From assembly GCA_025340205.1 (NCBI GenBank), contig CP006868.1, positions 180,001 to 212,000 of the forward strand: a stretch of DNA of 32,000 nucleotides. The letters are read 5' to 3'. A model generated the notes under the pieces. That model was not told where the DNA came from. It ran no database searches and saw nothing but the letters and a program-made list of their open reading frames with translations. This stretch comes from Ignicoccus pacificus DSM 13166 (GTDB lineage: Archaea > Thermoproteota > Thermoprotei_A > Sulfolobales > Ignicoccaceae). The first letter of the stretch is position 1. Every line of letters begins with the position of its first letter. Shown here piece after piece: positions 12,769-29,790 of the stretch. The position numbers and the translations under genes were made by a program.

Positions 12769-12845
<77 letters not shown>

Positions 12846-12865
12846 GTTCGGAGGCTCTCTCAAAA

Positions 12866-13097: not shown

Positions 13098-14477
13098 TTG
13101 GAGAAGGATCACATGGACTACGCCGTTGAACTAGATATAGCAATAAAGCCCACGACCCCTGTTCCCATGATAGGCCAAGAGTACGGTTATTACGTAGGAG
13201 CGGGAAATCCGCTGTTCTCCGTAGGAGGAGGAGTCCTCAGGGAGGCCCTAGGAACTATACTGAAGAGGTACCATGCTCTGAGGGGCTACAAGCTCGTGGA
13301 GACCCCTATCTTGGCTAGGACCACCTTGTACGAGCTGACGGGTCACTTGAGTTTCTATAAGGAGAACATGTTCCTCTTGGACATCGAAGGAGACGAATAT
13401 GCCATAAAGCCGATGAACTGTCCCTTCCACGTTCTGATATTCATGAATACATTGCAGAAGTATCAAGGAAGGGTTCCGTTACCTTTCAAGATGTTCGAGC
13501 TAGGGAAGGTTCATAGGTATGAGATAGCGGGAGCGCTGAGAGGGCTGCTAAGGGTAAGGGCCTTCACCCAAGATGACGCACACATATTTGCAAGGGAGCA
13601 AGACGTACTCCCATCCATCCTCGAGATATTTGACATGATGAAAGATGTTTATGAAAAGGTCTTCCACATACCAGTTCACGGAGGAAGCGTCAAGCTGAGG
13701 CTAAGCCTTTCCGATAAGAGCAAAATAGGCACCGAGTTCATGGGAGAACCAGAAGCCTGGGAGTTCGCAGAGGAGAAGCTCTTCAAGGCCGGCGAGGAGA
13801 TAAAGAGGAAGTACGGAATAGAGTTCTTTGCCGAGGAAGGGGAAGCGGCCTTCTACGGTCCCAAGCTGGACGTGGTGGTCTACCTAGGGGAGGAGCAGAA
13901 GGAGTGGCAGATAGGCACCGTCCAGTTCGACTTCAACTTACCTAAGAGGTTCAAGCTAGTTGAAATGTTGAAGGAGACCCATGGAATAGACTCCCTCTAC
14001 ATGATCCACAGGGCTCTGCTGGGAAGCGTTGAGAGGTTCCTAGGAATATACTTGGAGATGTTTAAGGGTAGGTTACCCTTCACTTTGGCACCTCTGCAAG
14101 CGATGGTCGTCGGAATAAAGACTGGAGACGAGGAAACGGACAAGAAAATAGAGCAAATGGTCAGCGAGGTTAACGAGACTCTGTGGAAGAACGAGATAAG
14201 GACTACTCCGTACTTTACCACCAAGACTAGGTTGAACAAGGACGTTAGGAAGATAGAGAGCACCGTAAAGCCTCCGCTTATGATATACATAGGAAAGAAG
14301 GAGGTAGAGAGTGACAAGGTGTTCGCGAGGCCTTGGGACTTCAGCGCTAAGAGGAGGAAGGGAATTAGTGTAAATCCCAGCGAGGTAATGAGCATAGTTG
14401 AGGACATGGAGAAGGACGTAGTAGAATTGATAGGAAGAAGCGTCAGGATACCGGTGGACCTAGGTTACCTTGCTTAA
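13098..14477 (+). CDS. thrS: threonyl-tRNA synthetase, catalytic form lacking the N-terminal editing domain (ThrRS-cat)
   Basis: Class II motifs are present: 'AIKPMNCPFH', 'HRYEIAGALRGLLRVRAFTQDDAHIF' and 'HRALLGSVERFLG'. The Cys and two His positions correspond to the ThrRS zinc ligands. A C-terminal anticodon-binding-like region follows. At about 455 aa it is too short to contain an editing domain. Start is the TTG at 13098 or the ATG at 13113. Confidence 0.88.
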   Translation: MEKDHMDYAVELDIAIKPTTPVPMIGQEYGYYVGAGNPLFSVGGGVLREALGTILKRYHALRGYKLVETPILARTTLYELTGHLSFYKENMFLLDIEGDEYAIKPMNCPFHVLIFMNTLQKYQGRVPLPFKMFELGKVHRYEIAGALRGLLRVRAFTQDDAHIFAREQDVLPSILEIFDMMKDVYEKVFHIPVHGGSVKLRLSLSDKSKIGTEFMGEPEAWEFAEEKLFKAGEEIKRKYGIEFFAEEGEAAFYGPKLDVVVYLGEEQKEWQIGTVQFDFNLPKRFKLVEMLKETHGIDSLYMIHRALLGSVERFLGIYLEMFKGRLPFTLAPLQAMVVGIKTGDEETDKKIEQMVSEVNETLWKNEIRTTPYFTTKTRLNKDVRKIESTVKPPLMIYIGKKEVESDKVFARPWDFSAKRRKGISVNPSEVMSIVEDMEKDVVELIGRSVRIPVDLGYLA

Positions 14478-14510
14478 AAATTATCAAAATGGCTTTTCGC
14501 GAGACGTGAG

Positions 14511-16676
14511 CTACTTACTCCTTCTTCTAGCCCCAAGCAGCATTGCCGATAATAGAGCCAAGAGCGCCGGTATGGGTATCTTGGAGCTGCTGCTGAGAAG
14601 GGTACTGCTGTTCAGCGGGGCGGCTAAGGTGTACGTGGCTTTCATCGCCCCAAAGGCGTCTCCCAAAACGATAGTCCCTCCAAAGCTAATGGGCACGTTA
14701 AACGAGGTGACTGGTAACAGTATTAACGATTGTGTGAAGGTTGAGATCAGACTAGTTAGAGTACTCGATAAGGTCGTTATACCTTCATAGAGAGTTACTA
14801 TATAGCTAGTAACTGCCGACACGTAAGTGCTGCTCGAGTACGTGGTGGTGAACACAGTAACTCCACCGGCCCCGGTGGTAGTAGTGCCTATTGGTTCGAT
14901 TATCGTCTGTGTGGTGAAGGATAGGGTCGGTATAGTTATCGTTCCGTTAATGCTAGTGGTAAACACGGTCGGTGAAAGAAGTACTGCCTTGCCGATCACA
15001 TTAGTGCAGTATATCTTGGGTGCTACATTTAGCATACTTGTAGGCGTTATCGAAACTATAGCAACCGTCTGTGGGTAAACGTTGAGCATGTCTATGTAGC
15101 CGAGATCGATGTGCTGGTTACCGTCAATTCCAGTTAGCGTGCCCTCTATTCCGTACGGCACACATGTAGCGGTGTAGTACAGCGCCGTGGTGCTACCTCC
15201 TTGTAGCTTGTACAAGGTCCACGAGGCGATGCTGGAGGAGGGGGCGAAGTACAGTATTGGGGTCGAAGCGCTGTATACCGTAGGATAGAGTGTGATTGTG
15301 GTTCTATCAGTTACAGTAGTCGTAACCGTTTTTGTCAAGTATATGGTCTTTGTAGCCCATGAAGTAACAACTACCGTTTTGGTGACCGTTACGGTTTCTG
15401 GGGGAGGTGGAATGTACGTTATCCCTATATCCGTGGTTGGTACATATACTGTCGAGTTTACATACACTGTAGTCGGTGAGGGTACGTAAACGGTCGTTGG
15501 CACATACACGGTTCTATTTATGTATACTGTGGTCGGTGAAGGCACGTAAACCGTTACCGGAGGAAGCGTTACGTATACCGTAGTAGTTACAGTCTTGTAG
15601 ATCGTAGTCGGTATGTATTTGTACACGGTCACATAGACAGTGGTAGTAACGGTCGTCGTGATGTATCTATATAATATGCTGGTCAAGGTGGTAGTAGTGG
15701 TCACAACGGGTATCTGAGGCGTGTAGTAGTCAACCCTGTAGATGTAGACGTTGCCATCTTGATTCGCTACTGCTATCAAATCATACCACCAAGCGACGCT
15801 GGAGGAGCTATCTGAACCCACGGAAGTGTAAGCCTCTAGATTACCGTTTACACTATCTCTAATTTTAAGGATAGTGGAACTGAGTCCTTCGAGTATTGCT
15901 ACATATTGGCAATCCGGACTGAAGGCGATGTCAGTTACTCCAAATTCACTTTGGTACCAAATTAACCTAGGCTGCGTAGGGTCTGAGAGACTATACATGT
16001 ATAGGGTATTGTCGGTAGCTACGGCCAAGTAACCTCCGCAAGCGGCTACTATGTTGGGATTGTTTACCGAGATTGAGCCAAGTTGGATTCCGCTATATCC
16101 ATCAATTATATTAACTCTATCGTTGTCATAATCAGCAACGTAGACATATAGATCCGAACCGCTGTGGTATACTGCTACGCCGTGAGGAGGGACCTCTTGC
16201 GAAACCGACCAGCCATACTGAGTATAGATATCCACCCCTCTGATGCCAGCTCCGCCGCTGAGTAAGACCGTATCGTCATCTAGCATAAGGGCATCCCACC
16301 ATCCGGTGTACCCAGTAACGCTGGAAGCTGTGAATGAACTTACCAAGTAACCGTCGGTGTTGAAAATGTAGACAGAACCATCCCAAGTCACGAATGCGAA
16401 GTAACCGTAACCAAAGCTCCCACCCATTATCATTCCCGACACATATGCTGAGTTGATCTGCGAGAACGACTGATCGTAGAAGTAGACGTTGTAATCTCCC
16501 CCTACTGCTAGTATACCATTATATGAGAACGCAGCGCTCTGAGGAGTGAAGGGTACGCTTATGGATCTGACGTACGATAAGCTTATAGCGTTAGCCAACA
16601 CAGTGACTGCTAAGAGAAACAGCGTATATCGCAAGCGCCTCCCCGTTTCCCCCACCGAATATTTGCTTCTCGCCAA
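14511..16676 (-). CDS. secreted surface protein: propeller module, T/V/Y-rich beta region, two-Cys domain, Thr-rich stalk, IPIP-TM-RRRSK C-terminal anchor
   Basis: N-terminal hydrophobic signal ('YTLFLLAVTVLANA'). Propeller motifs 'AACGGYLAVATDN', 'AFSPDCQYVAIL' and 'VAWWYDLIAVANQDGNVYIYRV'. Two-Cys domain 'TATCVPYG...LNVAPKIYCTNV'. The C-terminus is 'KIPIPALLALLSAMLLGARRRSK'. It lies 34 nt downstream of the archaeosortase-like gene on the same strand. The exact start (TTG at 16676 or internal) is uncertain. Confidence 0.8.
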   Translation of the reverse strand: MARSKYSVGETGRRLRYTLFLLAVTVLANAISLSYVRSISVPFTPQSAAFSYNGILAVGGDYNVYFYDQSFSQINSAYVSGMIMGGSFGYGYFAFVTWDGSVYIFNTDGYLVSSFTASSVTGYTGWWDALMLDDDTVLLSGGAGIRGVDIYTQYGWSVSQEVPPHGVAVYHSGSDLYVYVADYDNDRVNIIDGYSGIQLGSISVNNPNIVAACGGYLAVATDNTLYMYSLSDPTQPRLIWYQSEFGVTDIAFSPDCQYVAILEGLSSTILKIRDSVNGNLEAYTSVGSDSSSSVAWWYDLIAVANQDGNVYIYRVDYYTPQIPVVTTTTTLTSILYRYITTTVTTTVYVTVYKYIPTTIYKTVTTTVYVTLPPVTVYVPSPTTVYINRTVYVPTTVYVPSPTTVYVNSTVYVPTTDIGITYIPPPPETVTVTKTVVVTSWATKTIYLTKTVTTTVTDRTTITLYPTVYSASTPILYFAPSSSIASWTLYKLQGGSTTALYYTATCVPYGIEGTLTGIDGNQHIDLGYIDMLNVYPQTVAIVSITPTSMLNVAPKIYCTNVIGKAVLLSPTVFTTSINGTITIPTLSFTTQTIIEPIGTTTTGAGGVTVFTTTYSSSTYVSAVTSYIVTLYEGITTLSSTLTSLISTFTQSLILLPVTSFNVPISFGGTIVLGDAFGAMKATYTLAAPLNSSTLLSSSSKIPIPALLALLSAMLLGARRRSK
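15433..15551 (-). repeat. imperfect about 60-nt tandem duplication inside the CDS, encoding 2x 'VYVPSPTTVY(I/V)N(R/S)TVYVPTT'
   Basis: Two adjacent units (15433-15491 and 15492-15551) are alignable by eye and encode a 20-aa unit twice. They sit within a longer T/V/Y low-complexity segment. Confidence 0.7.
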
Positions 16677-16710
16677 GGAAAATAAGTCTCTATGAGAGTA
16701 AGAAAGATCT

Positions 16711-17586
16711 TCAAGTTACCCGCTCTCCTCGTTGTAACTTCCCAACTCTTTCAACCAGTAAAGGCTCTATTGGCTTCAATATACACCACTCCATCAAATC
16801 TATCTTAAGAACCTTCCCAAAGATCACGATGAATAGTGTTCCGTTTATTATCCATGTTAGCAACGACGTTAACATATGTGCAGAATACCACGGTCTTCCA
16901 AGTACGTAAAAGTTGCTAAATCCTCTTGTAGCGATGTAATTCTCTACTTGGAATCCAAACAGCATTATCAGTAGGATGACTCTAGCTATGTTCGCTGAAA
17001 TGAGTAAGATCAAGAATAGCATACTACTCCCAAGAAAGCGCACAACGAATTTCTTCCCTCTCTTGCTGTAAAGGCTTCTCACAAAGAGAGCTATGATCAG
17101 CGGCGTGAAGAATACTAAATACCTTAACGAACTGCAAGTGTAATGGAACCATACGTTCTCAGTATATATTACAACGATGTTCTGATGAGCACTAAGTGTT
17201 GTTATATGGAGATCGTGAGAGTCGGTGTTCACGAGAATGTTAAAAGAATTATCAAGGTGAAGGTGATTGAAAATGAAGGAAAGTAGTTTCATTTCAAAGG
17301 ATACGAACATGCTCGAGAGAGACGTGAACGCGGATGCCGCATTGAATATAATTAAGCTCAGGAGGGTAATTGAGAAGGACAAAGTGTAGATACATGATCC
17401 ATCTCTATCAATTAGAGCCAAGATTAGGAGTAGGGGGAGAGAAAGCAAGGACATGAACCCTATAGTGCGCGGGATTTCATGAAAGATGTATCCCATAGCA
17501 GTAACTCCTAGAAGAGATAATTGCAATAATAGTAGCAATGCAGCGAGTAATCTGAAGAACAGTTTCAGACGTATCCTCCACTTCAC
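16711..17586 (-). CDS. polytopic membrane protein with exosortase/archaeosortase-like catalytic motifs (candidate archaeosortase)
   Basis: 291 aa with about 7 hydrophobic helices. 'ENVWFHYTCSSLRYLVFF' (Cys151) resembles the family 'CSG(I/L)RS(L)' active-site context at the start of a helix. 'LLISANIARVILL' (Asn199/Arg202) resembles the 'N..R' motif 51 residues later. 'GRPWYSAHMLTS' supplies Arg231/His237. GTG start. The assignment is by remembered motif pattern, not a search. Confidence 0.5.
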   Translation of the reverse strand: MKWRIRLKLFFRLLAALLLLLQLSLLGVTAMGYIFHEIPRTIGFMSLLSLPLLLILALIDRDGSCIYTLSFSITLLSLIIFNAASAFTSLSSMFVSFEMKLLSFIFNHLHLDNSFNILVNTDSHDLHITTLSAHQNIVVIYTENVWFHYTCSSLRYLVFFTPLIIALFVRSLYSKRGKKFVVRFLGSSMLFLILLISANIARVILLIMLFGFQVENYIATRGFSNFYVLGRPWYSAHMLTSLLTWIINGTLFIVIFGKVLKIDLMEWCILKPIEPLLVERVGKLQRGERVT

Positions 17587-17669
17587 TTTCGTCTTCCTCT
17601 GTATGTATAAAGATTAGCCTTATTATCTTTTCTACAAAGAGCATTTGGGGATGAGAGATAGATCGTAGT
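17587..17669. promoter_or_regulatory. back-to-back divergent promoter region (archaeosortase-like gene / giant protein gene)
   Basis: 83-bp gap. 'gtatgtataaag' (about 17611-17622) lies about 28-35 nt upstream of the minus-strand GTG at 17586. 'ccttattatctttt' (about 17628-17642) lies about 30 nt upstream of the plus-strand TTG at 17670. Confidence 0.35.
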
Positions 17670-20600
17670 TTGTTGTTTCTCATCGTAGTGTTGGTATTGA
17701 ACGTCCGCGCCGCGTTAATAGTGATTCCGTTGCCTGACGGTAGAGCGATAACGAATATAATTCCCTATTCTCATTACATAAAAGTGAGAGTCATTGATAT
17801 GAATCATAACTATGCTAACCTTTTAACATTACTTCCTAAGGACTACCCTAACTGCCTAGGTTTGAAGGATGCCTTACCGTTAACCTTTATGTACGGCTGG
17901 GGCAAGTATTACTTAGTACACTATAATACTACAAGTGCCAATATTGACGTTGTCCTCTGTAAACCTTCCGAGTTAGGTGATATCAAGCCAATTATCCGCG
18001 CCATTCAAAAGGGAGACTCAAAAGGAATATCCTTACCAATATCGATCGCTAACGGAAGAGGCATATATGTCTTTATCTCACTCGAACATTTATTCCAGAC
18101 CTTACTCTATGAGCGAGTGTCAGCGACCGTCATTATGGACAATGGTGTCCTATTCGGTTCAATATCTAACGACTCGCCCATCTATACGATGCTCCGCTAT
18201 AGGGACTCCTTACTGATGCTCTTTGAACCGGCGGGTTTCAACGAACTTGATCTTGTTGAACATAATCTTACCTCTAATTCTCTAAGAATTATTTATAGGT
18301 TCCATCAGCCCATATTTGACATTAAAGCTTGTGATTCAACACTAGCAGTACTTACTAAAGCTCCAGAGGGGCTGGAGATAAAGATAGGTAAGGTAGATCG
18401 AGATAAATTCAACATAGAAAAAATAAAGAGGTTGGACGTTGATGCCGACCACGCATCTCAGAGCTTTACTCGTGATTGTAAGTACCTAGCAATATTATAC
18501 AAGGAAAAGAGCAACGCCCACGTCGCGTTACTAAATACGAGCGACCTCTCGGTTATAGGTTCAAAGGAAGTTCGAGTTAGTGGAATACCCATTGCTCTTG
18601 CCCTTCAGGGCAGTGAGTTATCGGCTATTACCCTAATTAAGAGCGATGATGTCTTTTTCCAAGACAGTTCGACTAATCCAATCGATGTTGCGTATATATC
18701 TTTAAGCGATCTTCTGCCCAAGAAGTATTTGTTAGAACTGTTAAAACTAAGAAGGAATGTTCATGAGCTTGGATCTTATGAGTATTATATGATTTTACCT
18801 CCGAAAAGAGGCCAAAGTTTACTAAAGAGAATCGAGGATGTAAAAGATGTTTGGAATAACATCACGTTAGTGATAAAAACAATGTTCGCTCTATTAAAAT
18901 ATAAGTCCTCCAGCGAATTAGTGGAAAGTGCTACTGAGTTGATCAATAGGGCAATAAATGAGACCGAACCTCTACTCGACGTGCTCAACACATCAAGTTC
19001 GATACGATTAGAAAAAGTTAATGCGGAGATAATTAGAAATCTCAACAAGGGTTGCAATATCACCTTCTCTAAGAACTTCCTTCACAATACTCCTCACTTT
19101 ATCTTGAGTACAGCAGAACTTTGTAGTAAAAGCACTGCGGAAAGCGTAGCGGAGCTCTTGTACGAGGGGTTCTTGCGATGCCTCACTCTCTCCAACGTTA
19201 CAAGGCTCAACGTTACCGGTGCGCTGCAGTGCGTCGATGTACGGAAGCAGTTGGAAGCGTTAGCATCTAACGTTTCTCAACTACTCTTCTTCTTGAAGAA
19301 CTTGGTTGTACTTCACTTCATAAATTCCGAAAAAGAATTCGCTTCCAAGCGTTACTTGAGTGATTCAACGCTTGGGCTATTGTTAAGTGACGTTAGGAAG
19401 TTAGACAAGCTGCTAAGGATACTCGCCAGTATGAATATAACCGTTAAACAAGGGAAGATGTTTAACTTGGAGACATTACTCCCGCCTATTAAGGTTAGGA
19501 AGGAATGCTCGCCACCATCAAGTCTACTTGAATTAGATCACTTAATCAATCTATTTAAAGCGAATAATCTGGATACAACGTTGAGACCTGATAGTATAGT
19601 TGAAGGAGCGCTCAAAGGATGGCTTGCACACTCCTACGTCATTTGTAAAGATAAGAATGAAACCGTTATTGAATACTTCCCTCTTCGGAGGAACTCGATT
19701 CCGGTAGTGGAGCTAGGGAACAATACTCTGCTTATTGGGGATGGAAAGGACTTAAGAATTATTTCGTTAATCAACGGAACAATGAAAAGCTATTTATTAA
19801 ACTCAAGCATATGGAAGGCTATACACTTAGGCCGTGATTATATCGTAGCTACTTCGGAAGGCATCTACTTAGTCAGCTTAAGTGGACTGAAGAAGCTAAT
19901 CACCATTCATAAGTCCGGTTATTACTACGCTCGCTATTTAGATGAAGAACTCATTGCTCCAAACCAAGTGTCCATATGTTACTATTTCTATACCCACTAC
20001 GGCACGAACGTTACATGCTTCCTCCTAGATTCAAGAGGGAACGTAATAAGGAGTTATACAAGAGCCTTTAGAAAGATACTAAGTAACGTGTTGTTGTTAG
20101 ACAATTACACGATTGTTAGCTATTCAACTAGTAGTACAGTTTATTACAACGCCGTAGAAATCGCTCAAGTTCCAGGAACGATAAAGTCGGCATTGTGTAG
20201 CCGGCTCTTGGTTGCAACCGATAATGAAAATGGGACAACGATATTCTATTTCCTAGGATATAAGAAAGTTCGACCGCTATGGATTTTGAACGTCTACGAT
20301 GACCTTGTGTGGCGCGGCGATATATGTAACTACGTTTTCCTTAAAAAGAGTAAAAGACTGCTGGACATATTTGGTAATTACTATACTTTAAATATGCTCC
20401 CAAGAGGCGACATGAAGATATATCGCAATGGCTCAAAACTCGTGATGCTGGAAATTTTCCCAGATTCTGATGGAAGATCATTGATTGGAAAGGTAGTAAT
20501 AAAAATCACAGAAGTGGACTTGAAGGAACCAGTCTTGGGACAGGAGAGGATTAAGAAGGTCAGGATATTGAATGGCGATACGTACCTCTCGTACTTAAGT

Positions 20601-21857
20601 TGCTTAATCAATCTTATGAATCCGAATATGTGTTATGACATCGTGAAGTCCGAGAAGGACGCTCTTGTGGTAAAGCTTAAACATGGAGTCTACTGGAAGA
20701 ATAGCATCTATGCTAATATTACTTTAGCGTTCATCAATAAGGCGAATGATACCTTGCATATCGAGATACAGAAGGCGTTACGACTCGAATTACCTCCGGG
20801 TAGTTCAAGGGTTCTCCGTATAAAACACGTACCTATCTACCTTACTCACTATAAAATTTTACCTATATTAATAGAATATCAATCCTCTCCGTACTTGAGA
20901 TTATACAACACCGTATTGGTTAATAACTCTCGTGATTCCCTAAAAGAGGTTTTAGTAAAGAATGTAGAGGGATTTGTAGAAGCTCTTAGCACATCCCCTA
21001 AGTACCTTGCTGTTGCCTTCAACAATATCACTTTCGAACCCAACAATTCAATACTCCATAACGGTCATATCTACATTTTAGATATTAATGGAAGCTTAGT
21101 GGAGCAGTACAATGTAAAAGGCGAGATGGAAGACGCCTCCTACTGCTGTAACAAGTTCGGCTTTGTAAATTTGGATGATTACGCCTACATCTACGACCTC
21201 TCAACTGGAACTTGGAAGAAGGTGTACGTTGGAGACGATTACGATAGAGCAATTACCATGCTTAAGAACGGCTTTCTGGCTGGTTGTTGTAATCTCGCCT
21301 ACTTCGATTTTCAAGGGCACAAAAGGTGGGACGTGAGTATGAATTACATTGTAAACGGTCCAGCTGTTTACAAAGGATACGTTTACGTTCCACAATATGC
21401 TGGCACTATGAACGCGCTCAGAATCCTCAAACTCTCGGATGGAGGTGAGGTAAGGACCATAGAGTTCAATGAACGGGTTCTGGACGCTCAAGTTTGTGGA
21501 AATTACTTAGCTCTTGGAACTGCTCACCATGTTTACCTTTATGACATTAGCGATCCAACGAATCCAAGAGAGCTTTGGAATTACAATGGGATTGCAAGGA
21601 GCTGTAATGGAGGATATTGTTATGGAGCTTGGAACGTCGCTTTCAGTCCGGACTGCAAGTACTTGGTTAGTGCTGATTATGAAGATCAAAAAATCCATCT
21701 GTTTGATGTACAAACTGGTAAGCAAGTGCTGGAGAGGAGGTTTGAAAGTAGTGTTGGCGAAGTCGCTTGGTGGAGGAACAGGATAGCTGTTGGATTGGAA
21801 AATGGTAAGGTTTACGTGTTCAAGCTGATAATACCTCCAATAACTTCCAAGAAGTAG
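17670..21857 (+). CDS. giant (1395 aa) secreted or N-terminally anchored, sequon-rich protein with a C-terminal propeller module shared with neighbouring surface proteins
   Basis: One uninterrupted 4.2-kb frame. Hydrophobic N-terminus 'LFLIVVLVLNVRAALIVIP'. I counted at least 20 N-x-S/T sequons by eye. A helical Leu-rich middle section spans about aa 350-650. The last about 250 aa align by eye to the N-terminal propeller of the 572-aa protein ('SYCCNKFGF/SYCCGKFSF', 'LKLSDGG/VKLSDGG', 'VCGNYLAL/ICGNYLAV', 'NPRELW'). There is no C-terminal TM anchor. The TTG start directly follows an in-frame TAG, so the true start may be slightly downstream. Confidence 0.8.
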   Translation: MLFLIVVLVLNVRAALIVIPLPDGRAITNIIPYSHYIKVRVIDMNHNYANLLTLLPKDYPNCLGLKDALPLTFMYGWGKYYLVHYNTTSANIDVVLCKPSELGDIKPIIRAIQKGDSKGISLPISIANGRGIYVFISLEHLFQTLLYERVSATVIMDNGVLFGSISNDSPIYTMLRYRDSLLMLFEPAGFNELDLVEHNLTSNSLRIIYRFHQPIFDIKACDSTLAVLTKAPEGLEIKIGKVDRDKFNIEKIKRLDVDADHASQSFTRDCKYLAILYKEKSNAHVALLNTSDLSVIGSKEVRVSGIPIALALQGSELSAITLIKSDDVFFQDSSTNPIDVAYISLSDLLPKKYLLELLKLRRNVHELGSYEYYMILPPKRGQSLLKRIEDVKDVWNNITLVIKTMFALLKYKSSSELVESATELINRAINETEPLLDVLNTSSSIRLEKVNAEIIRNLNKGCNITFSKNFLHNTPHFILSTAELCSKSTAESVAELLYEGFLRCLTLSNVTRLNVTGALQCVDVRKQLEALASNVSQLLFFLKNLVVLHFINSEKEFASKRYLSDSTLGLLLSDVRKLDKLLRILASMNITVKQGKMFNLETLLPPIKVRKECSPPSSLLELDHLINLFKANNLDTTLRPDSIVEGALKGWLAHSYVICKDKNETVIEYFPLRRNSIPVVELGNNTLLIGDGKDLRIISLINGTMKSYLLNSSIWKAIHLGRDYIVATSEGIYLVSLSGLKKLITIHKSGYYYARYLDEELIAPNQVSICYYFYTHYGTNVTCFLLDSRGNVIRSYTRAFRKILSNVLLLDNYTIVSYSTSSTVYYNAVEIAQVPGTIKSALCSRLLVATDNENGTTIFYFLGYKKVRPLWILNVYDDLVWRGDICNYVFLKKSKRLLDIFGNYYTLNMLPRGDMKIYRNGSKLVMLEIFPDSDGRSLIGKVVIKITEVDLKEPVLGQERIKKVRILNGDTYLSYLSCLINLMNPNMCYDIVKSEKDALVVKLKHGVYWKNSIYANITLAFINKANDTLHIEIQKALRLELPPGSSRVLRIKHVPIYLTHYKILPILIEYQSSPYLRLYNTVLVNNSRDSLKEVLVKNVEGFVEALSTSPKYLAVAFNNITFEPNNSILHNGHIYILDINGSLVEQYNVKGEMEDASYCCNKFGFVNLDDYAYIYDLSTGTWKKVYVGDDYDRAITMLKNGFLAGCCNLAYFDFQGHKRWDVSMNYIVNGPAVYKGYVYVPQYAGTMNALRILKLSDGGEVRTIEFNERVLDAQVCGNYLALGTAHHVYLYDISDPTNPRELWNYNGIARSCNGGYCYGAWNVAFSPDCKYLVSADYEDQKIHLFDVQTGKQVLERRFESSVGEVAWWRNRIAVGLENGKVYVFKLIIPPITSKK

Positions 21858-21858
21858 C

Positions 21859-21863
21859 TTTTT
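21859..21863 (+). terminator. oligo-T tract after the giant gene
   Basis: 'tagcTTTTTatg' lies immediately after the stop. Confidence 0.3.
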
Positions 21864-22150
21864 ATGCCTTCATCTTTTCAGTAGCTAATGCTTTATTTAA
21901 CCGCTATTAGTTCTACGAAATCCTTTCTCAATATTAATAAGAGATGGATTTCAAGCACTTCCACAGTGACTATTGGAATTCAACTCTACGCTCTTGTTAT
22001 TTGTCTTTGCTACGCTTGTGAATGATGCATCATTATTGATTATCGTTGCTCGTCAAAGCTGCTGAAATAGCTTTTGAATTATTGACATTAATGAAGGTTC
22101 TAAGGTGGTTGAAAAAGATAGGATTCATTAACGTTACGATAGTTAGATAG

Positions 22151-22717
22151 TTAATGAGGAGTAAAGCCAAGGCTAAGGACATAATGAACCACTATAGGTA
22201 TTATAAGGAACGGTAACGCAAAGGACAAAACCCTCCAATCGAACACCATGAAAAGGAAACCCACGAAGCTAATCATGGAGAAAACTACTAATATAAAAAT
22301 CCATATTGGTATGTTGTATAGCAGTAGAGGTACGCTGGCGTAAATTGTTGCTTTACCTAGCCAAGCTAGTTCAGTAAAATAGGCACCACTAAAGGGAAGG
22401 AGGATTGAGAAGAACAGCTGCCCTAGTATGTTATTCTTATCCTCTAGAAGACTGGTAGAGAGTGACAGCGAATAACTGAAGGCTAAGAGGGTTAGGAGAA
22501 ATATCAAGTATTGTGTCAGACCTAATACACTTACCGGCCAATCGAGACCGCTTAATCTAAAGATCGCAGCCGAGATAAGGAATGTCAAGAGAACAATACT
22601 CGTTTGTCCGTTGAGATTGGAATTAGTACGTACAGCATTGTGCGTAGAACCTGTGGAGGAGAGAGCCAAGATCGGTAATATTATCGTTAGTAGAACTAGG
22701 GTAGCACGCTTCTTCAT
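22151..22717 (-). CDS. Cys-free polytopic membrane protein, paralogue A (188 aa)
   Basis: Signal-like N-terminus 'MKKRATLVLLTIILPILALSS' followed by 4-5 hydrophobic helices. It shares 'FRLSGLDWP(V/I).V.G(L/M)..YLIFL..LL.FS(Y/F)S' with the protein at 23544..24131. It is divergent from the 204-aa anchored protein. Confidence 0.7.
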   Translation of the reverse strand: MKKRATLVLLTIILPILALSSTGSTHNAVRTNSNLNGQTSIVLLTFLISAAIFRLSGLDWPVSVLGLTQYLIFLLTLLAFSYSLSLSTSLLEDKNNILGQLFFSILLPFSGAYFTELAWLGKATIYASVPLLLYNIPIWIFILVVFSMISFVGFLFMVFDWRVLSFALPFLIIPIVVHYVLSLGFTPH

Positions 22718-22932
22718 AGCATACCCCTCCGCATAACCTTTCTCTTTATGCTGTAATATGAGTTAATCATTTAAAATGCTATCTTTTAAAGGTCCTGAAG
22801 CGATGTCGTATTGCCATATGATACTATAAACAAAAACAACCCTTAGCTAGACAACAACTCTATCCTTACTGAGTCTCTTTAGAAAACATTTCTATAGTAG
22901 ACTGTTTTTAACAAATCTACGGGTATAGAACT

Positions 22933-23547
22933 ATGAAGAAGTACCTTCTCTTCCTAGCTCTCTTTCCGATAGCGCTTGCTGCGAATACAGCGGAGTTTGT
23001 CATACCTCCTTTTCCTCAGGGTGTGCTCACAGTTTTTGTTTCAATGAACATAGGCCCGGAAGTGATAACCTATAAAAATACCTTCCAACATCCTTTAACC
23101 ACAAATTTAATTGTAATTGATTTAGGTAAGACACCAGTCGTCCCAGTAGGTCTCTCGGTAAGAGGCTACATCCACGTACAAGCGAGTATGAGTAGCGGCT
23201 ATTGCTTTGAACCTTATGAGACCTACACCATCAAGTTGTACAGTATAGGTGAAAACGCAACAAAGCCTGTTACTTCTGTTAAGGGTACTCTTACCAGCAT
23301 ATGCGACTACTATTACACTTACGGTTTTTATGCAAACCCTCCATCGAGGTACAATTACTTCGGCTACCTGCCATTAACAACGTTCACCGCCACTACTGGT
23401 CTTACGTTTCGCAACTATATAACCATGACATTAGACTTAAAGGTCAGTATGACGTCCTTGCCTACGACTTCAATAGTGGTCCCTCTCCTGATAGGGCTAT
23501 CGCTGCTACTTATGAGATTCAAGACACAAGGAAGAAAAATTGCTTAG
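22933..23547 (+). CDS. small secreted protein with a compact two-Cys domain and a C-terminal TM/basic anchor (204 aa)
   Basis: Signal peptide 'MKKYLLFLALFPIALAANT'. 'GYCFEPYE...TSICDYYY' resembles the two-Cys domain of its neighbours. The C-terminus is 'SIVVPLLIGLSLLLMRFKTQGRKIA'. 'ctgtttttaac' lies about 25 nt upstream of the ATG and suggests a leaderless-type promoter. Confidence 0.7.
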   Translation: MKKYLLFLALFPIALAANTAEFVIPPFPQGVLTVFVSMNIGPEVITYKNTFQHPLTTNLIVIDLGKTPVVPVGLSVRGYIHVQASMSSGYCFEPYETYTIKLYSIGENATKPVTSVKGTLTSICDYYYTYGFYANPPSRYNYFGYLPLTTFTATTGLTFRNYITMTLDLKVSMTSLPTTSIVVPLLIGLSLLLMRFKTQGRKIA

Positions 23548-24131
23548 GTCACTAGCTGGTATAGAATACTAACCGTAATTGTGGGAATCAGTAAAAAGAT
23601 CAAGACGAAGCCTAGGAGCCTCGGTTGGAAAATCAATGCCAGTAAGATGAGCGGTATAAATCCGGCCAAGGCTGGTCCTATTATAATTACTCCAATTAGG
23701 TTGAGAGAAAAAGCTGTACCAAATACCGTGGATTGAGCAAGCATATAAATAGAGTAGAAGTAAGGACTCATTAACAAGAGGAATGATGGTAGCGCTGTAT
23801 GAGAGGTCGAGGTCATAAATAGTGATGATGTATCTCCCTTTGCAAGAGATCCTAAGGCAACTGAAAAGGAAAAAGAGAATAAAAGGAGGAAAAAGAGAAA
23901 TATTAAGTAATTTCCCATCCCCGTGACCATAATTGGCCAGTCCAAGCCACTTAACCTAAACGCCATTGCTGAGACAATGAAACCAAGGAGACTTACAAGC
24001 AACGTTTTCTTTCCAAAGGTTGAAAGAAGGAACTCCAAAATATGCATGTTAACGTCATCCGAAAAACCTTGTGCTATTACCGGTGTAACTATGATAATAA
24101 GCAGCAAAATCGCTACTAAGACCTTATTCAT
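23544..24131 (-). CDS. Cys-free polytopic membrane protein, paralogue B (195 aa)
   Basis: N-terminal signal 'MNKVLVAILLLIIIVTPVIAQG'. It carries the 'FRLSGLDWPIMVTGMGNYLIFLFFLLLFSFSFS' motif shared with 22151..22717. It is divergent from the 572-aa protein and overlaps the convergent upstream gene by 4 nt. Confidence 0.7.
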   Translation of the reverse strand: MNKVLVAILLLIIIVTPVIAQGFSDDVNMHILEFLLSTFGKKTLLVSLLGFIVSAMAFRLSGLDWPIMVTGMGNYLIFLFFLLLFSFSFSVALGSLAKGDTSSLFMTSTSHTALPSFLLLMSPYFYSIYMLAQSTVFGTAFSLNLIGVIIIGPALAGFIPLILLALIFQPRLLGFVLIFLLIPTITVSILYQLVT

Positions 24132-24254
24132 AGCTTTGCATCCCCATTACGATTTCTTCATACTACATGTAGTTAAAGTCATCTCTCCGAACACTATGGT
24201 AGAGACAAAACTTTTCTAGGATTATAGGATTGTAAAGGGCGGGCTAGAAAGGAA

Positions 24255-25973
24255 ATGGGGAAGGTGATATTAACACTCTTGGTTACTCTTGGAACGTTAC
24301 TAGCGATGCGATTAGCGTTGCTAGGAACTTTCAGCATAAATTCTATCAACGCAATAGCATTATCTGACGATGGTCGTTATATAGGCGTTGCTGCTGATGA
24401 TGGTGCTTACGTACTCAACCTAGACGGTGATATAGTTGCGAAATACTATAGTTATAACACAATAAGCGATGTTTCCTATTGTTGCGGAAAGTTTAGTTTC
24501 GTTGCATATGATTACGTTTACGTATATGACCTCGTAAGCAAAAAATGGGAGAAGATAAAGATAGATCCAGACTATGGTAAGTACATAGTAGCAACCAACA
24601 ATGGATTCGTAGTTGGAAAAGATGGAGTAGCGTTCTATAAATGGGATGGTACTCAAATGTGGAGTACCAACTACGACCTACTTTCCAAGCCTGTCATCTA
24701 CGATAACTATATCTTAATACCAGAAGACTACAGTTACTATGATTATTATCTAAGAGTTGTTAAATTAAGTGATGGGGGAACCATTGCTTCCCCCCTTGAC
24801 TTCGGGTATAGTTTTAAAATGGCTATCTGTGGGAACTATTTAGCGGTACTAGAATACTATAAGTTAATACTTTACAATATAACGGATGTTAAAAATCCAA
24901 GAGAGCTCTGGTATGACACTGGATTCTCCGATGCTTCTAGTGTTGCGTTTACCGATCATTGTGAATACGTCCTTGTGAGCGATGGGGACGATGTGTATTT
25001 CTACAATGTAACTAATGGAAAGAAGGTGTATAATATGACGATAAGCGGCCTCAAACGCGTAAGTTGGAAACAGTCAATAATGGTTGCAGATCTCGGCAAT
25101 GAGCTTTCGATATATTATCCCCTACCTGAGATAGAATTAACCGATAAAACGCAAACGCTTACGTGGACTGCCATACAATCTAACACCCTATACAGTTTTA
25201 CTGGCACATGCTTCGCCTACGGTATGGCGGCTACTATAATTGGTTTCGGTAATACAATAACGTTTAGTGGATACAAAACCATTATTGTGAGTAATGGGAA
25301 TAGTTACACTTACTCGAGCATAACTACCATAACTCAAGGCGGTAGCGTGACAACAACCATTGACGTAGGAAAAGTAGTATTAGGGAAGACAATAACAAAG
25401 AATCTCACGGTAGTCCTTTCGTTCTCGCCAGCCACAGCACTAAACTTTGTACCGAAAATAGTCTGCACTAACGTAACCGCTACCTCGTATTCCGGTTCCT
25501 TATCCTCATTAAACACTGTAATCACAGAAACACTTACTATATCTTTCCCACATTACACCAGCTCTACCGTCACTTACTATGTGACGACGACTACGGAAAT
25601 AGGAGGTGTAATCTTACCCACTACCGTGACAGCATCATCAGTAACGTATTTCAGTACAATATCAACAACTACGACAACTATTCTGATCACGAAACCAACT
25701 ACCAGTTTCTCAATAATACAGACACTAGGTAATGGTATTATTTCAACAATACTACTTAGTGCCTATCCAGTCAATTTTATGATGATAAAGCCAATAATTA
25801 TACTGTTAACCAACAACGCGGCCAAGTATACTGCCACGCTGTTGTTCACTGGAACATATCTAGCACAAACCATTAATGACGTAACCCCAACCACAAGCGT
25901 CGTGAACACAGTCCCCGTCCCCCTCATCTTGTCACTTATCGGATTCCTCCTAAGAAAGAGAAGTAGGGGGTGA
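24255..25973 (+). CDS. secreted surface protein: N-terminal propeller module, two-Cys domain, Thr-rich stalk, VPVP-TM-RKRSRG anchor (572 aa)
   Basis: Hydrophobic N-terminus. The propeller is alignable to the giant protein's C-terminus, and the 18-mer 'aatccaagagagct(t/c)tgg' is shared at 21561-21578 and 24894-24911. Two-Cys domain 'GTCFAYG...LNFVPKIVCTNV'. The C-terminus is 'NTVPVPLILSLIGFLLRKRSRG'. Confidence 0.8.
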   Translation: MGKVILTLLVTLGTLLAMRLALLGTFSINSINAIALSDDGRYIGVAADDGAYVLNLDGDIVAKYYSYNTISDVSYCCGKFSFVAYDYVYVYDLVSKKWEKIKIDPDYGKYIVATNNGFVVGKDGVAFYKWDGTQMWSTNYDLLSKPVIYDNYILIPEDYSYYDYYLRVVKLSDGGTIASPLDFGYSFKMAICGNYLAVLEYYKLILYNITDVKNPRELWYDTGFSDASSVAFTDHCEYVLVSDGDDVYFYNVTNGKKVYNMTISGLKRVSWKQSIMVADLGNELSIYYPLPEIELTDKTQTLTWTAIQSNTLYSFTGTCFAYGMAATIIGFGNTITFSGYKTIIVSNGNSYTYSSITTITQGGSVTTTIDVGKVVLGKTITKNLTVVLSFSPATALNFVPKIVCTNVTATSYSGSLSSLNTVITETLTISFPHYTSSTVTYYVTTTTEIGGVILPTTVTASSVTYFSTISTTTTTILITKPTTSFSIIQTLGNGIISTILLSAYPVNFMMIKPIIILLTNNAAKYTATLLFTGTYLAQTINDVTPTTSVVNTVPVPLILSLIGFLLRKRSRG

Positions 25974-25979
25974 TGGAAG

Positions 25980-26783
25980 ATGAGGAGGGATGTAATTTTA
26001 CTTCTATTGTTACCAGTTACACACGCATACCTACTCTCAATATCGCCAATCACGGCCACAATTTCGTGGACCATATACACTGTGGGGGCGGAGGGTACAT
26101 TTGCCTATGCTTACAAAGCTACTTGCTATCCGTACGGTCTAAAAGCTGACGTAGGTACCTCAGTTTTGGATATCGGATCAATTGCCTTCTTCGGTGACCG
26201 CTATTCACCGATACTTCAATTAACGGCAAGTGCTGACGTGAAAACCTTAAACAATGTAATGGAAAAAGTATGGTGCGATGATGCGACATTAAAAATCTAC
26301 TATGTTACCACCACGGTAACTATACTCAACTATACAGGTGTACTGGAGGCTATAGTCACTTCGTACGTTACAGCCACCTACTTGTTACCCAAATTAACCA
26401 CTACCCAAATAGGCGCAGGGGCATACATTCCTACAGTTGTGTACGTAACAACAACAGTTACGAAACCTATAATAAAGACAATAACCACTACATTAACGCA
26501 GTCCAATATAACTACTACACTTACCGGAACTGCCTTATATTCCAATACTACCTTTTCATACCTACTGCCGGCGGTGAGTGCGACTAAAATAATATTGAAG
26601 CAGATTCCAACCACAATAATCCTTTTGGACAACGTGGCTTTGCTGGGGATAAAGGTATTGGTCAGTAACCCTCTAACTACCACTAGTGTAGCCCTCACAA
26701 CAACGAGTACAACTACTGTTCCGGTTCCATTGCTGCTTAGTTTAGCCTACGTAGCCTTCTTGAGAAAGAGAAAGAGAGGTTAA
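25980..26783 (+). CDS. secreted two-Cys-domain protein with Thr-rich stalk and VPVP-TM-RKRKRG anchor (267 aa)
   Basis: Signal 'MRRDVILLLLLPVTHA'. 'SPITATISWTIYTV...ATCYPYG...KVWCDDA'. The C-terminus is 'TTVPVPLLLSLAYVAFLRKRKRG'. A 'GGGGGTGAT' Shine-Dalgarno-like element precedes the ATG, which lies 6 nt after the upstream stop, consistent with an operon. Confidence 0.8.
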   Translation: MRRDVILLLLLPVTHAYLLSISPITATISWTIYTVGAEGTFAYAYKATCYPYGLKADVGTSVLDIGSIAFFGDRYSPILQLTASADVKTLNNVMEKVWCDDATLKIYYVTTTVTILNYTGVLEAIVTSYVTATYLLPKLTTTQIGAGAYIPTVVYVTTTVTKPIIKTITTTLTQSNITTTLTGTALYSNTTFSYLLPAVSATKIILKQIPTTIILLDNVALLGIKVLVSNPLTTTSVALTTTSTTTVPVPLLLSLAYVAFLRKRKRG

Positions 26784-26858
26784 ACTTATTATCACTCTAT
26801 TAGCTTATCATTTCTCAATTTTATTAGCGGGAAAACTCCTTATCTCTTGAGGAGAGGG

Positions 26859-27695
26859 ATGGGTTTGAAGGGGACGTTACTCTTGTTAATTGCTCTCGCG
26901 TTTGGTGCTTATGCCAACATCATAGTTAGTATAGACCCTGTCACAACAACTGCTACTTGGAACTACTACACTGTCACGGTGGCAAATAACACGACTAGTA
27001 CGTTGGAAGTAGTAAGGACAGCAACATGTACTGCTATAGGCGCGCAGATGACGTTAATTGGTGAGAAGACGGCAGTAGTTAACATGGGAACTGTAAGAGC
27101 CGATGGTACAAGTTTGGTGCCAGAACCCCAATATTCCACGACCGTAACCTTGTCCTCGCTTAGTATGATCCAGAACTTCGTGCCTTATATATGGTGTGAT
27201 GATGTGACGGTGACCACATATCTACTCAATACTACCACTTCAACCATATCGACTACTGGTCTCTATACGACCAAAGTTCTAAGCACTACAGTTGAGACTT
27301 ACCTATACCCCAGTGTGACCTTAATTCAAGAAGGCCCCGATCTATACGTACCCTCAACTACCTTGGTGACGACATTAGTGACGCGAGCCATAACCTCTAC
27401 AATTAGTACTTGGATAAGCGCTACGACGACTACCATACAAACTCTCTCTTTCGCTCTCGCTTCAACAGTATATAGTATGGCACTGCTGGCGGTAAAACCA
27501 ACAAGCGCTATGATAACATCGCTTCCCACGAGTGTCGTAAACAACGACAACCTGGCTACCATGAACGTACCCGTATACCTCTCAAATACGCTACTTTCAT
27601 CTTCAGGGAACGGCGGTATACCAACCGTAGCTCTATTAACGCTTATAGTACCCTTCTTGAGGAGACTAAGGTCCAATAGAGAAGGGACAGAGTAA
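26859..27695 (+). CDS. secreted two-Cys-domain protein with Ser/Thr-rich stalk and C-terminal TM/basic anchor (278 aa from the ATG; the track ORF starts at a TTG at 26847)
   Basis: Signal 'MGLKGTLLLLIALAFGAYA'. 'DPVTTTATWNYYTV...ATCTAIG...NFVPYIWCDDV'. The C-terminus is 'GGIPTVALLTLIVPFLRRLRSNREGTE'. Confidence 0.78.
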   Translation: MGLKGTLLLLIALAFGAYANIIVSIDPVTTTATWNYYTVTVANNTTSTLEVVRTATCTAIGAQMTLIGEKTAVVNMGTVRADGTSLVPEPQYSTTVTLSSLSMIQNFVPYIWCDDVTVTTYLLNTTTSTISTTGLYTTKVLSTTVETYLYPSVTLIQEGPDLYVPSTTLVTTLVTRAITSTISTWISATTTTIQTLSFALASTVYSMALLAVKPTSAMITSLPTSVVNNDNLATMNVPVYLSNTLLSSSGNGGIPTVALLTLIVPFLRRLRSNREGTE

Positions 27696-27714
27696 GGTTC
27701 AGTAGTCCGTCAAG

Positions 27715-27720
27715 TTTTTT
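27715..27720 (+). terminator. oligo-T tract after the surface-protein operon
   Basis: 'caagTTTTTTac' lies 20 nt after the stop at 27695 and is followed by a very A+T-rich 500-bp gap. Confidence 0.35.
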
Positions 27721-28208
27721 ACACGTGACTTCAAAAACGAAAAACTTCTAGATGTACCTTCTTTCTTCGACTCAATCGTAATCTTAATAAACATTTAAAT
27801 AAACATCTTTCTATCGATTCTCAAATTCTATGCTCTAATTTTAGATTTAAAGGATTAGTTTATTGAATCATGGAGACATAGCAATTGTAGCCTCTATGTC
27901 ATTATATGGGGTTATTACATTCCTCGACTTCTCTCCCCTAAAGAGAATTAGTCGGATTAACCAGATATATAATGTAAACACATTCCGATAACATTCTAAA
28001 ACCAACATCGAAGAGTTAGTTGAAGGAAAGACTGTAGCATTTGACCTCTTAGATTACAATTACCTTAAAACGACACTATGACAATGCTCTATTTTCGCTT
28101 TTATAGAATAATCACCACGGCCCTACTTCTGACGTTTAAATGATTCCCATTCATTAAAATTTCTCTACTAATAATAATTTAAATGCAGAAGTAGCAATTA
28201 TCTTAGGT

Positions 28209-28862
28209 GTGAATTTGCGTTTCCAGATACTCTATTCCCCCACTTACTCCACCTTGGAAGTCGAGTTGGAACAAGGAGAAGAAGTAGAAGCGGAGCCTGG
28301 GGCAATGATGATGATAGAGGGAGATGTGGAAGTGAAACTGAAGAGCAGAGGCATATTGAGAAAGTTAGCGGCCAGAGAGTCAATTTTCACAGTAAAGTAT
28401 ATAGCCAAGGAAAAAAGTAAGGTATGGTTCGTATCACCATTTCCGGGCGATATAGCATATGTTCCTCTAGAGGGAAAAGGACTTATCATTTCCGATAAAT
28501 CCTATTTGGCTCATCACGGCGATCTAAAGCAAAAGGTCGTGTGGAGAGGATTGAAGGGCGTGTTTGGAGGAAGCGGTCTAATGTGGCTTAAGGTCGAAGG
28601 GAATGGAGGAGTTTGGTTAAGCTCCTATGGAGCAATTATGGAGAAAGAGGTGAAGGATGAGAAGTTAATAATAGATAACGTTCACTTGTTAGCAATGGAA
28701 GACACGTTGGACTATAAAGTTAGAAAATTTGGAGGTATTGGGACGGCCCTCTTTGGAGGCGAAGGATTAGTGTTAGAGGTAAGAGGTCATGGTAAGATAT
28801 ACCTACAGACGAGAAACCAAAGATCTCTACTTGAGTCGTTAGGCATACCGAAGGTTCGATAA
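28209..28862 (+). CDS. AIM24/DUF124 (TIGR00266-type) family protein
   Basis: 'STLEVELEQGEEVEAEPGAMMMIEGDVEVK...' and the later 'GGSGLMWLKVEGNGGVWLSSYGAI...L.GGEGLVLEVRGHGKIYLQTRN' match my memory of this family's repeated beta pattern. GTG start with 'aatttaaat' about 25-30 nt upstream. Confidence 0.7.
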   Translation: MNLRFQILYSPTYSTLEVELEQGEEVEAEPGAMMMIEGDVEVKLKSRGILRKLAARESIFTVKYIAKEKSKVWFVSPFPGDIAYVPLEGKGLIISDKSYLAHHGDLKQKVVWRGLKGVFGGSGLMWLKVEGNGGVWLSSYGAIMEKEVKDEKLIIDNVHLLAMEDTLDYKVRKFGGIGTALFGGEGLVLEVRGHGKIYLQTRNQRSLLESLGIPKVR

Positions 28863-29790
28863 GAGAAGAAGTCCTTGGAAAGAGGGTATATCTTTACTTA
28901 AATTGTAAAGGTTCTCTTTATTAGAAGGTCATAGTCAGCGACGGCAGTGCGAAGTTGAGGAGGCTAGTCCTTCTCTCATTGTTTATCCTTCCCTTGCTCT
29001 TCTCCTAAGGCCTCAACTACCAAGGATTGTTAATGATCTTCACTTATGGGCTACCCAAAGGATCAACGAGCTCGATGACATCTTGATGCGGTTCCTTAAC
29101 GCTCTCCCCAGAACCTCTCTAATTGAGACCACTTTCCTTACTGTTTCATGAAAAGGCAACGATGGTAGACATAATAAGCTACGGTTTTAGAATAAGATTG
29201 TTAATCTTAGACTTAGAAGATCTAGGAAAGTCTATATGCGAGAGCATACAAGAGGGCTTCAGTCGAGCCAAGGTGGAGGTACCAAGGAGCGCTTCAAATG
29301 CTGTTCCAAGTGAGGGGGATTATCGACAAAGGCTGGAACGCTTTCATCAATGATCTGAGGAACGCTGCCATTTGCGGGCCGAGTCCGAGCTACCAAATAA
29401 TATCTAATTCAAACTTCATAATACATAGAGTCGGCGAGAACTACGTTAGCTACCAATATGGACCAAACACCTACCAGAAGGCCATTGTAAGCTTACTCGA
29501 GCTTTTATCTCAACTAATGCCGAATGCTCGAGATCTGCTTCACCTTGTAAAAGTCAAATAGTTTTGAATATTGTTCTTTCTATAAGCAATCTACTTCATA
29601 TTGGTGGTTAAGATGGCAAGCAATATAGTTAAGAAGCTAGAGTGTTATCGGAAAATTACTCATGTTGGCTACTTACTCGTTGATATTCTCGGTGCTATCG
29701 ATAATAGCCATAGACTTTCCTTCACTAGTAATAGCAATAGAGATTTACATGAGTCCTTACATCTTTAATCCCTTCGTTCCATGATTTAAG

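Follow-up and report, generated by a model that had tools for sequence, protein, structure and literature searches.

A candidate, highly divergent exosortase-like protein encoded among tailed, secreted WD40 and two-Cys proteins in Ignicoccus pacificus

How proteins are sorted among the inner membrane, the very large intermembrane compartment and the outer membrane of Ignicoccus is an open question. This is the sole archaeal genus known to have both an inner and an outer membrane, and Ignicoccus pacificus is a hyperthermophilic crenarchaeon (bioRxiv 10.64898/2026.09.08.750209). A gene cluster of I. pacificus DSM 13166, contained in a stretch of 32,000 nucleotides (contig CP006868.1, positions 180,001 to 212,000; hereafter the window), raises the question of whether a sortase-like membrane enzyme might process a set of secreted proteins encoded around it. 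Such an enzyme, together with a small and clustered set of candidate substrates, would make the sorting question in Ignicoccus concretely testable. The initial annotation of the window described nine consecutive genes for membrane or secreted proteins, among them one for an exosortase/archaeosortase-like protein of 291 amino acids. All nine open reading frames (ORFs), named here p721, p291, p1395, p188, p204, p195, p572, p267 and p282 after the length of their products (Table 1), were recovered with the same positions and strands, and each product has either an N-terminal hydrophobic signal or several transmembrane (TM) segments. The p291 ORF is identical to IPA_01160, and the p572 ORF contains IPA_01190. 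We consider p291 to be a probable, highly divergent exosortase-like enzyme, and we assign a probability of about 0.45 to the fuller reading, in which p291 is a very divergent, minimal member of the exosortase/archaeosortase superfamily that processes the neighbouring proteins bearing a C-terminal tail.

In the NCBI record p291 is labelled a hypothetical protein. Its sole match among 18,950 NCBIfam models is exosortase O (XrtO, TIGR04489), with an E-value of 5.9e-5 (22 bits) for the full-length protein and of 3.6e-6 (26 bits) for residues 110-270; in the alignment, residues 125-219 of p291 lie on profile positions 144-233. This hidden Markov model (HMM) match, although weak, is specific. One reversed and eight block-shuffled copies of the p291 fragment gave no match at E<=10. 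Ten block-shuffles in which C151, S152, S153, N199, R202, H237 and S241 were held in place gave no XrtO match either, one of the ten matching the general exosortase signature TIGR04178 at 9 bits (E 1.6). Since none of the 19 controls matched XrtO, neither composition nor TM layout nor the motif residues can by themselves account for the similarity.

Members of the EpsH (exosortase) family have only six invariant residues, which make up the three motifs Cys-x-Gly, Asn-x-x-Arg and His-x-x-x-Gly; these sit close to the outer face on TM helices that directly follow one another (Haft 2006, PMC1569441). Corresponding motifs, with Ser at both Gly positions, occur in p291 in the family order (Table 1), a pattern found in 0.43% of p291 shuffles when Gly, Ala or Ser is allowed at the Gly positions. 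The alignment register was recovered by in-silico substitution in residues 110-270, with the XrtO score as readout. The native score of 26.0 bits fell to 20.8 with C151A (-5.2), to 21.8 with N199A (-4.2) and to 21.3 with R202A (-4.7); the three substitutions together abolished the match, and the neutral control Y149A left 25.8 bits (-0.2). Restoring Cys-x-Gly by S153G raised the XrtO score to 30.3 bits (+4.3) and brought in four additional models, namely XrtN (25.3 bits), TIGR04178 (18.4 bits, cut-off 23), archaeosortase H (ArtH, 16.5 bits) and XrtA (15.6 bits), all four of which were lost again when S153G was combined with C151A, N199A or R202A. In this hypothetical S153G background only, H237A lowered the TIGR04178 score by 3.4 bits, and R231A or W233A left it essentially unchanged. 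The substitution scores therefore place C151, N199, R202 and, less securely, H237 on the conserved catalytic columns, and the Asn-x-x-Arg motif downstream of the Cys has both of its residues on such columns. Judged by the same scores, it is the Ser in place of Gly at position 153 that leaves p291 slightly too weak to be detected by the general models.

Hydropathy and the positive-inside rule predict that p291 has a cytoplasmic N terminus and six TM segments, with 18 Lys and Arg residues in the predicted cytoplasmic segments versus 4 in the external ones. In this predicted topology C151, R202 and H237 lie on the outer side of TM4, TM5 and TM6, respectively. Homology of p291 to the exosortase/archaeosortase superfamily is, in our opinion, fairly likely on this evidence. 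The description of the 291-aa protein in the initial annotation thus holds in part: the only family match is to an exosortase model, and the Cys, Asn-x-x-Arg and His order and the predicted topology agree with it, but the score stays below all cut-offs. Searches of Pfam and NCBIfam had been suggested there as a check, and these diverged, NCBIfam giving the sub-cut-off match to TIGR04489 and Pfam giving none.

The proteins that p291 might act on share a characteristic end. Five of the products, p721, p572, p267, p282 and p204, all encoded within 13 kb around p291, finish in a Ser/Thr-rich linker, a [VI]P element, an uncharged core of 12-17 residues counted from [VI]P, and 4-5 Lys/Arg. The [VI]P element takes the form VPVP, IPIP, IPTV or VVP, and the pattern can be abbreviated as [VI]P-x-[PV] followed by 10-13 hydrophobic residues and 4-5 Lys/Arg. 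The tail is the best-conserved 22-column stretch of a paralogous module, with 41% mean pairwise identity versus 29% overall. The copy on p204 is the sole non-paralogous one, as p204 is unrelated to that module (hhalign probability 0.8%). When searched alone against NCBIfam, the tails gave sub-threshold matches to the MYXO-, JDVT-, PGF-, CGP-, PEF-, Synerg- and Heimdall-CTERM models, and the p721 tail aligned, below threshold, to the MYXO-, JDVT-, PGF- and CGP-CTERM models over the TM and basic part only. PGF-CTERM (TIGR04126) reached 9.3-10.8 bits against a cut-off of 24.5, over profile positions 13-28, which exclude the PGF motif, and the other CTERM models (PEP, PEF, MYXO, JDVT, CGP, Synerg and Heimdall) reached 9-17 bits against cut-offs of 20-27. 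No CTERM model was above its cut-off; in the initial annotation, too, the combination of motif and domain set had not been recognised. The tails can be described, from their sequences, as having the architecture of a sortase-type signal of no described class.

Modules within the secreted proteins were defined by all-against-all BLASTP, alignments, and HMMs built from the alignments. A two-Cys module, which comprises the tail and, before it, a stretch rich in Thr and in beta structure, is common to p572, p721, p267 and p282; it forms the C-terminal ~260 residues of p721 and p572 and nearly all of mature p267 and p282. The profile of this module has no match in the PDB or in metagenomes, and an AlphaFold2 (AF2) model of p267 built with four paralogues was unusable (pLDDT 36). 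A homologue search with p572 returned only the query, low-complexity words having swamped the search. A propeller is common to p1395, p572 and p721 (BLASTP E-values of 4e-39 to 6e-21). The sharing of both modules among the cluster proteins, which had been noted before, is real, but the propeller, which had been called otherwise unrecognised, has the WD40 fold: its three-sequence profile matched PDB entry 2ymu_A with an E-value of 9.4e-24, followed by many WD40 proteins, and Pfam gives weak WD40-type matches on the propeller proteins. A fourth secreted member of this family, p295, is encoded 4 kb outside the nine-gene range and matches the propeller HMM with an E-value of 7e-16, with weak Pfam matches to WD40/PQQ. 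Because p1395 and p295 have no tail, they are not predicted to be substrates. In p1395 there are 24 Cys residues and 26 N-x-S/T sequons, and its N-terminal 1100 aa have no match in the PDB. Between the propeller and the two-Cys module, p721 has a stalk rich in Thr, Val, Tyr and Pro (residues ~321-465), which is encoded at 15462-15630 by imperfect 60/75-nt repeats (…TVYVPSPTTVYxNxTVYVPTT…) and which is probably an O-glycosylated spacer.

Relatives of the propeller were found in a scan of GTDB genomes at only three loci, each on its own contig, all in metagenome-assembled genomes (MAGs) of Desulfurococcales. The three MAG proteins have neither a signal peptide nor a tail, and their neighbours are not p291-, p188- or two-Cys-like. 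The scan missed I. pacificus itself, and its silence on other Ignicoccus species is therefore weak evidence. The closest relative outside Ignicoccus (L001, 54-2600 (+), on MAG contig WAOJ01000040.1) shares 48% identity with the propeller of p1395 and makes up the N-terminal part of a protein of 848 aa whose C-terminal region is helical. This protein has no signal peptide, suggesting that the propeller is also used in an apparently cytoplasmic context.

The genes for p291 and p721 are co-oriented, p291 lying 34 bp upstream of p721, and p291 is separated from the divergent p1395 by 83 bp; the other two divergent pairs are 215 bp and 123 bp apart, all as first described. Because it lies so close downstream and on the same strand, p721 is the likeliest dedicated substrate of p291, with p572, p267, p282 and p204 as further candidates. 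Gene order, paralogy and motifs are observed, as are the weak HMM match and the architecture of the tails; the scheme that we infer, from homology and catalysis through the substrate relationship to acceptor and destination, would run as follows. The genes for p291 and p721 would be co-transcribed, and those for p572, p267 and p282 would form one operon. Placed in the inner (cytoplasmic) membrane of the diderm cell, p291 would meet p721, the three operon products and p204 after their export by Sec, at a stage when the short C-terminal segment still tethers them. It would cleave them near [VI]P through an acyl intermediate on Cys151 and transfer them to an acceptor, which could be a lipid, as in the case of ArtA, or some other component of the envelope. 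This transfer would either anchor the proteins or release them from the inner membrane, allowing them to reach the intermembrane compartment or the outer membrane. The cargo, consisting of glycoprotein-like WD40 propellers, a lineage-specific, beta-rich two-Cys module and Thr-rich stalks, most likely represents envelope scaffold or adhesion proteins. The boldest form of the proposal, in which a working, extremely divergent exosortase-type transpeptidase of I. pacificus clips a new [VI]P-x-P-type signal off WD40/two-Cys glycoproteins and thereby releases or re-anchors them for the intermembrane compartment or outer membrane, seems to us rather doubtful.

A number of results weigh against p291 being a processing enzyme for its tailed neighbours. 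Curated cut-offs are 23 bits for TIGR04178 and 200-250 bits for the exosortase subfamily models, and the 22-26 bits of p291 compare with a cut-off of 250 for TIGR04489. Native p291 is not reported by TIGR04178, and Pfam, including Exosortase_EpsH (PF09721), gives nothing at E<=10 for p291, its core, a shorter core or the S153G variants. Both invariant Gly residues are replaced by Ser (S153 and S241), so that two of the six invariant residues are changed. A word-index search of 5.8e9 proteins returned p291 itself and nothing else, and phmmer against 1.84e9 representative proteins returned p291 and one other protein, P0003, which was ruled out as a spurious tandem-repeat artefact. No homologue was found with the core fragment at E<=10, in a metagenome scan or in a sequence search of the PDB. 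The sole match from tblastn against plasmids, a search aimed at annotated exosortase genes, was a GAF match attributed to chance. The single-sequence AF2 model of p291 is poor (pLDDT 54), and its Foldseek matches in the PDB, all with E>=4, are meaningless. As to the candidate substrates, four of the five tails (p721, p572, p267 and p282) belong to one paralogous module of ~260 aa with which they were inherited, and there are thus effectively only two independent tails. The alignments of the tails with CTERM models span the generic TM and basic part and leave out the signature motifs. A C-terminal TM anchor that ends in basic residues is a generic feature of surface proteins in crenarchaea, and such an anchor, when short, is by itself not diagnostic. 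The tripartite signal that the initial annotation saw in five proteins is accordingly present in all five as an architecture, but not as five independent occurrences.

The cluster could be a lineage-specific island of envelope proteins, in which the tails are permanent TM anchors of Thr-rich stalked glycoproteins of the SlaB type and p291 is an unrelated orphan that resembles exosortases by chance. This is possible, if somewhat unlikely. It would fit an ORFan whose score is far under every curated cut-off, for which Pfam stays blank even with S153G and for which about half of the 26 XrtO bits come from three residues, as well as the paralogy of four of the tails. It would also fit the reports that place archaeosortases in some of the Euryarchaeota and describe crenarchaea as apparently lacking the enzymes and their signals (PMC3387779, PMC6098224), and the fact that WD40 expansion is a known trait of Ignicoccus with no link to sortases (PMC2614490). 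The papers found in our literature search mention archaeosortases in connection with Crenarchaeota or Ignicoccus only to say that they are absent. A chance resemblance is, however, difficult to reconcile with the failure of all 19 controls, including the 10 that keep the motif residues in place, to match XrtO, with a chance frequency of 0.4% for the ordered motif, and with a mutational register that falls exactly on the Cys, Asn and Arg. A single conservative change, S153G, adds four family models, the predicted topology sets C151, R202 and H237 outside, and the hydrophobic cores, with 12-17 residues, are on the short side for stable anchoring. If the homology is true, p291 may still be a relic of the superfamily that is inactive or has another target, the tailed neighbours not being its substrates and their adjacency reflecting the general clustering of envelope genes. 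Such decay would be consistent with the loss of both invariant Gly residues to Ser, with six TM segments where at least eight have been described, with a single-species orphan, which suggests rapid drift, and with the lack of any shared regulatory element joining the genes. We nevertheless find it unlikely: the Cys, Asn, Arg and His have all been kept, the gene for a tailed protein follows 34 bp downstream on the same strand, and no part of the paralogous module is better conserved than the tail, which is also present on the non-homologous p204.

The two other membrane proteins of the cluster, p188 and p195, are paralogues with 33% identity and a common FRLSGLDWP motif. Neither contains Cys, neither has a family match in Pfam or NCBIfam, and they were rejected as relatives of p291, to which no similarity was found. 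The three divergent pairs of a membrane and a secreted protein that had been proposed are thus present as an arrangement, but they do not share one kind of membrane protein: since p188 and p195 are dissimilar to p291, the pairs mix two unrelated membrane-protein families. Each of the two paralogues faces a gene for a tail-bearing secreted protein, and p188 or p195 with its divergent neighbour could be the functional unit, giving two duplicated pairs of membrane partner and cargo with p291 as a peripheral component. This arrangement would be compatible with a processing role for p291, but it is very improbable as the explanation of the locus; the partners p204 and p572 are non-homologous except for the tail, and with neither Cys, family match nor similarity to p291, no mechanism can be attached to p188 and p195. 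No common cis-element was found among the three divergent intergenic regions.

Table 1. Positions in the window, strands and descriptions of the cluster genes, their tails and associated features
Feature	Position	Strand	Description
p721	14511-16676	(-)	721 aa; signal peptide, WD40 propeller 38-320, stalk, two-Cys module 465-~699, C-terminal tail
p291 (IPA_01160)	16711-17586	(-)	291 aa; orphan 6-TM membrane protein, candidate divergent exosortase/archaeosortase-like cysteine transpeptidase
Putative catalytic-core codons of p291 (residues 151-241)	16864-17136	(-)	C151-S-S, N199-I-A-R202, H237-M-L-T-S241
Divergent intergenic region p291/p1395	17587-17669	.	83 bp
p1395	17670-21857	(+)	1395 aa; N-terminal signal/anchor, ~1100 aa without recognised fold, C-terminal WD40 propeller 1102-1389, no tail
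p188	22151-22717	(-)	188 aa; small polytopic membrane protein without Cys
p204	22933-23547	(+)	204 aa; small secreted two-Cys protein with tail
p195	23544-24131	(-)	195 aa; p188 paralogue
p572 (IPA_01190)	24255-25973	(+)	572 aa; signal peptide, WD40 propeller 31-287, two-Cys module, tail
p267	25980-26783	(+)	267 aa; signal peptide, two-Cys module, tail
p282	26847-27695	(+)	282 aa; signal peptide, two-Cys module, tail
p295	9815-10702	(-)	295 aa; secreted propeller-only member of the WD40 family, without tail
p721 tail	14514-14579	(-)	IPIPALLALLSAMLLGA-RRRSK
p204 tail	23479-23544	(+)	VPLLIGLSLLLM-RFKTQGRKIA
p572 tail	25911-25970	(+)	VPVPLILSLIGFLL-RKRSRG
p267 tail	26718-26780	(+)	VPVPLLLSLAYVAFL-RKRKRG
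p282 tail	27618-27692	(+)	IPTVALLTLIVPFL-RRLRSNREGTE

The genes flanking the cluster are housekeeping genes, with the gene for threonyl-tRNA synthetase (ThrRS) directly upstream and those for ribosomal proteins, 2-oxoacid:ferredoxin oxidoreductase and deoxyhypusine synthase further up. The G+C content goes from ~0.47-0.53 in the housekeeping half (1-16000) to ~0.40-0.42 over the cluster and beyond (16000-32000), a drop that is compatible with lower constraint or with foreign origin. A tRNA-Ala(TGC) gene at 12769-12845 (-) is the sole RNA gene detected within the window. Two copies of a 20-nt near-repeat, 85% identical, were seen, one just downstream of p1395 (ATCCTTTCTCAATATTAATA, 21920-21939) and the other in the promoter-proximal region of p282 (ATCATTTCTCAATTTTATTA, 26807-26826); they could be a common promoter element or be due to chance. 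Beyond the cluster, positions 28863-31360 form a stretch of ~2.5 kb without any ORF of at least 100 aa, which is unusually long for apparently non-coding DNA in an archaeal genome of 1.7 Mb. It contains no Rfam match, tandem-repeat array or pseudogene remnant of the cluster families, and no pseudogene fragments of these families were found elsewhere in the window. The cytoplasmic-looking protein of 164 aa encoded at 31361-31855 (-) may belong to the V4R-type small-molecule-binding proteins, which are reported to be expanded in I. hospitalis (Podar 2008, PMC2614490).

If p291 does process its neighbours, it would be the first such enzyme in Crenarchaeota/Desulfurococcales, found in the sole archaeal genus with an outer membrane, and the system would be to this archaeon what the PEP-CTERM pathway is to diderm bacteria. 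Should the homology hold, the locus represents a very divergent form of a known type of system, one whose signal motif is new and which occurs in a lineage where it was not expected and in cells of unusual architecture. A single change of Gly to Ser in Cys-x-Gly would then hide a family member from every general profile, and other divergent members may therefore escape standard annotation. Should p291 not be a sortase, the cluster would nonetheless illustrate, in compact form, how members of the Ignicoccus WD40 expansion can be secreted and anchored on stalks. This expansion was described in I. hospitalis, whose 10 WD40 genes were reported as uniquely expanded (Podar et al. 2008, PMC2614490). 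The beta-propellers of p1395, p572, p721 and p295 share the WD40 fold with it, and here they come with signal peptides, those of p572 and p721 being fused to a stalk, a two-Cys module and a tail. Permanent anchors of the Sulfolobus SlaB type likewise combine a Thr/Ser-rich stalk with a hydrophobic segment and basic residues at the C terminus; the I. pacificus tails differ from them in their core of only 12-17 residues, their conserved [VI]P start and the adjacent sortase-like gene.

With the exosortase/archaeosortase superfamily (EpsH/XrtA, TIGR04178; best model TIGR04489), p291 has in common a polytopic protein of ~290 aa, an ordered Cys...Asn-x-x-Arg...His on three consecutive helices predicted near the outer face, and a gene beside those for secreted proteins with a motif, a short TM segment and a basic C-terminal tail. 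It differs in its scores far under the cut-offs, in the change of both Gly residues to Ser, in having six TM segments versus at least eight, in having no orthologue detected in other genomes, and in its host, a crenarchaeon (Desulfurococcales) from a group reported to be without the family. ArtA of Haloferax volcanii, the archaeosortase that has been studied by experiment, carries out C-terminal cleavage and lipid attachment of PGF-CTERM proteins (PMC9263693, PMC6098224), and its essential residues are Cys173, Arg214 and Arg253 (PMC9263693). In size and in the relative positions of Cys and Arg, p291 is similar to ArtA, and by analogy the two systems would share the logic of Sec export, a transient C-terminal TM segment, Cys-dependent cleavage at the outer face and re-anchoring. 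The Ignicoccus locus differs from the ArtA system in having no PGF motif, no match to the ArtA model and no PssA/PssD-like genes nearby. The bacterial PEP-CTERM/exosortase system is found only in bacteria with an outer membrane and has many paralogous secreted substrates of low homology (Haft 2006, PMC1569441). The Ignicoccus locus differs from it in having no PEP motif, no exopolysaccharide (EPS) locus and no sigma-54/PrsK-R-T regulation, but Ignicoccus offers a parallel as an archaeal genus with an outer membrane. To our knowledge, Ignicoccus has no S-layer. It is tempting to speculate, by analogy with PEP-CTERM, that p291 and its tailed neighbours might represent a parallel route of outer-membrane trafficking in an S-layer-free diderm cell.

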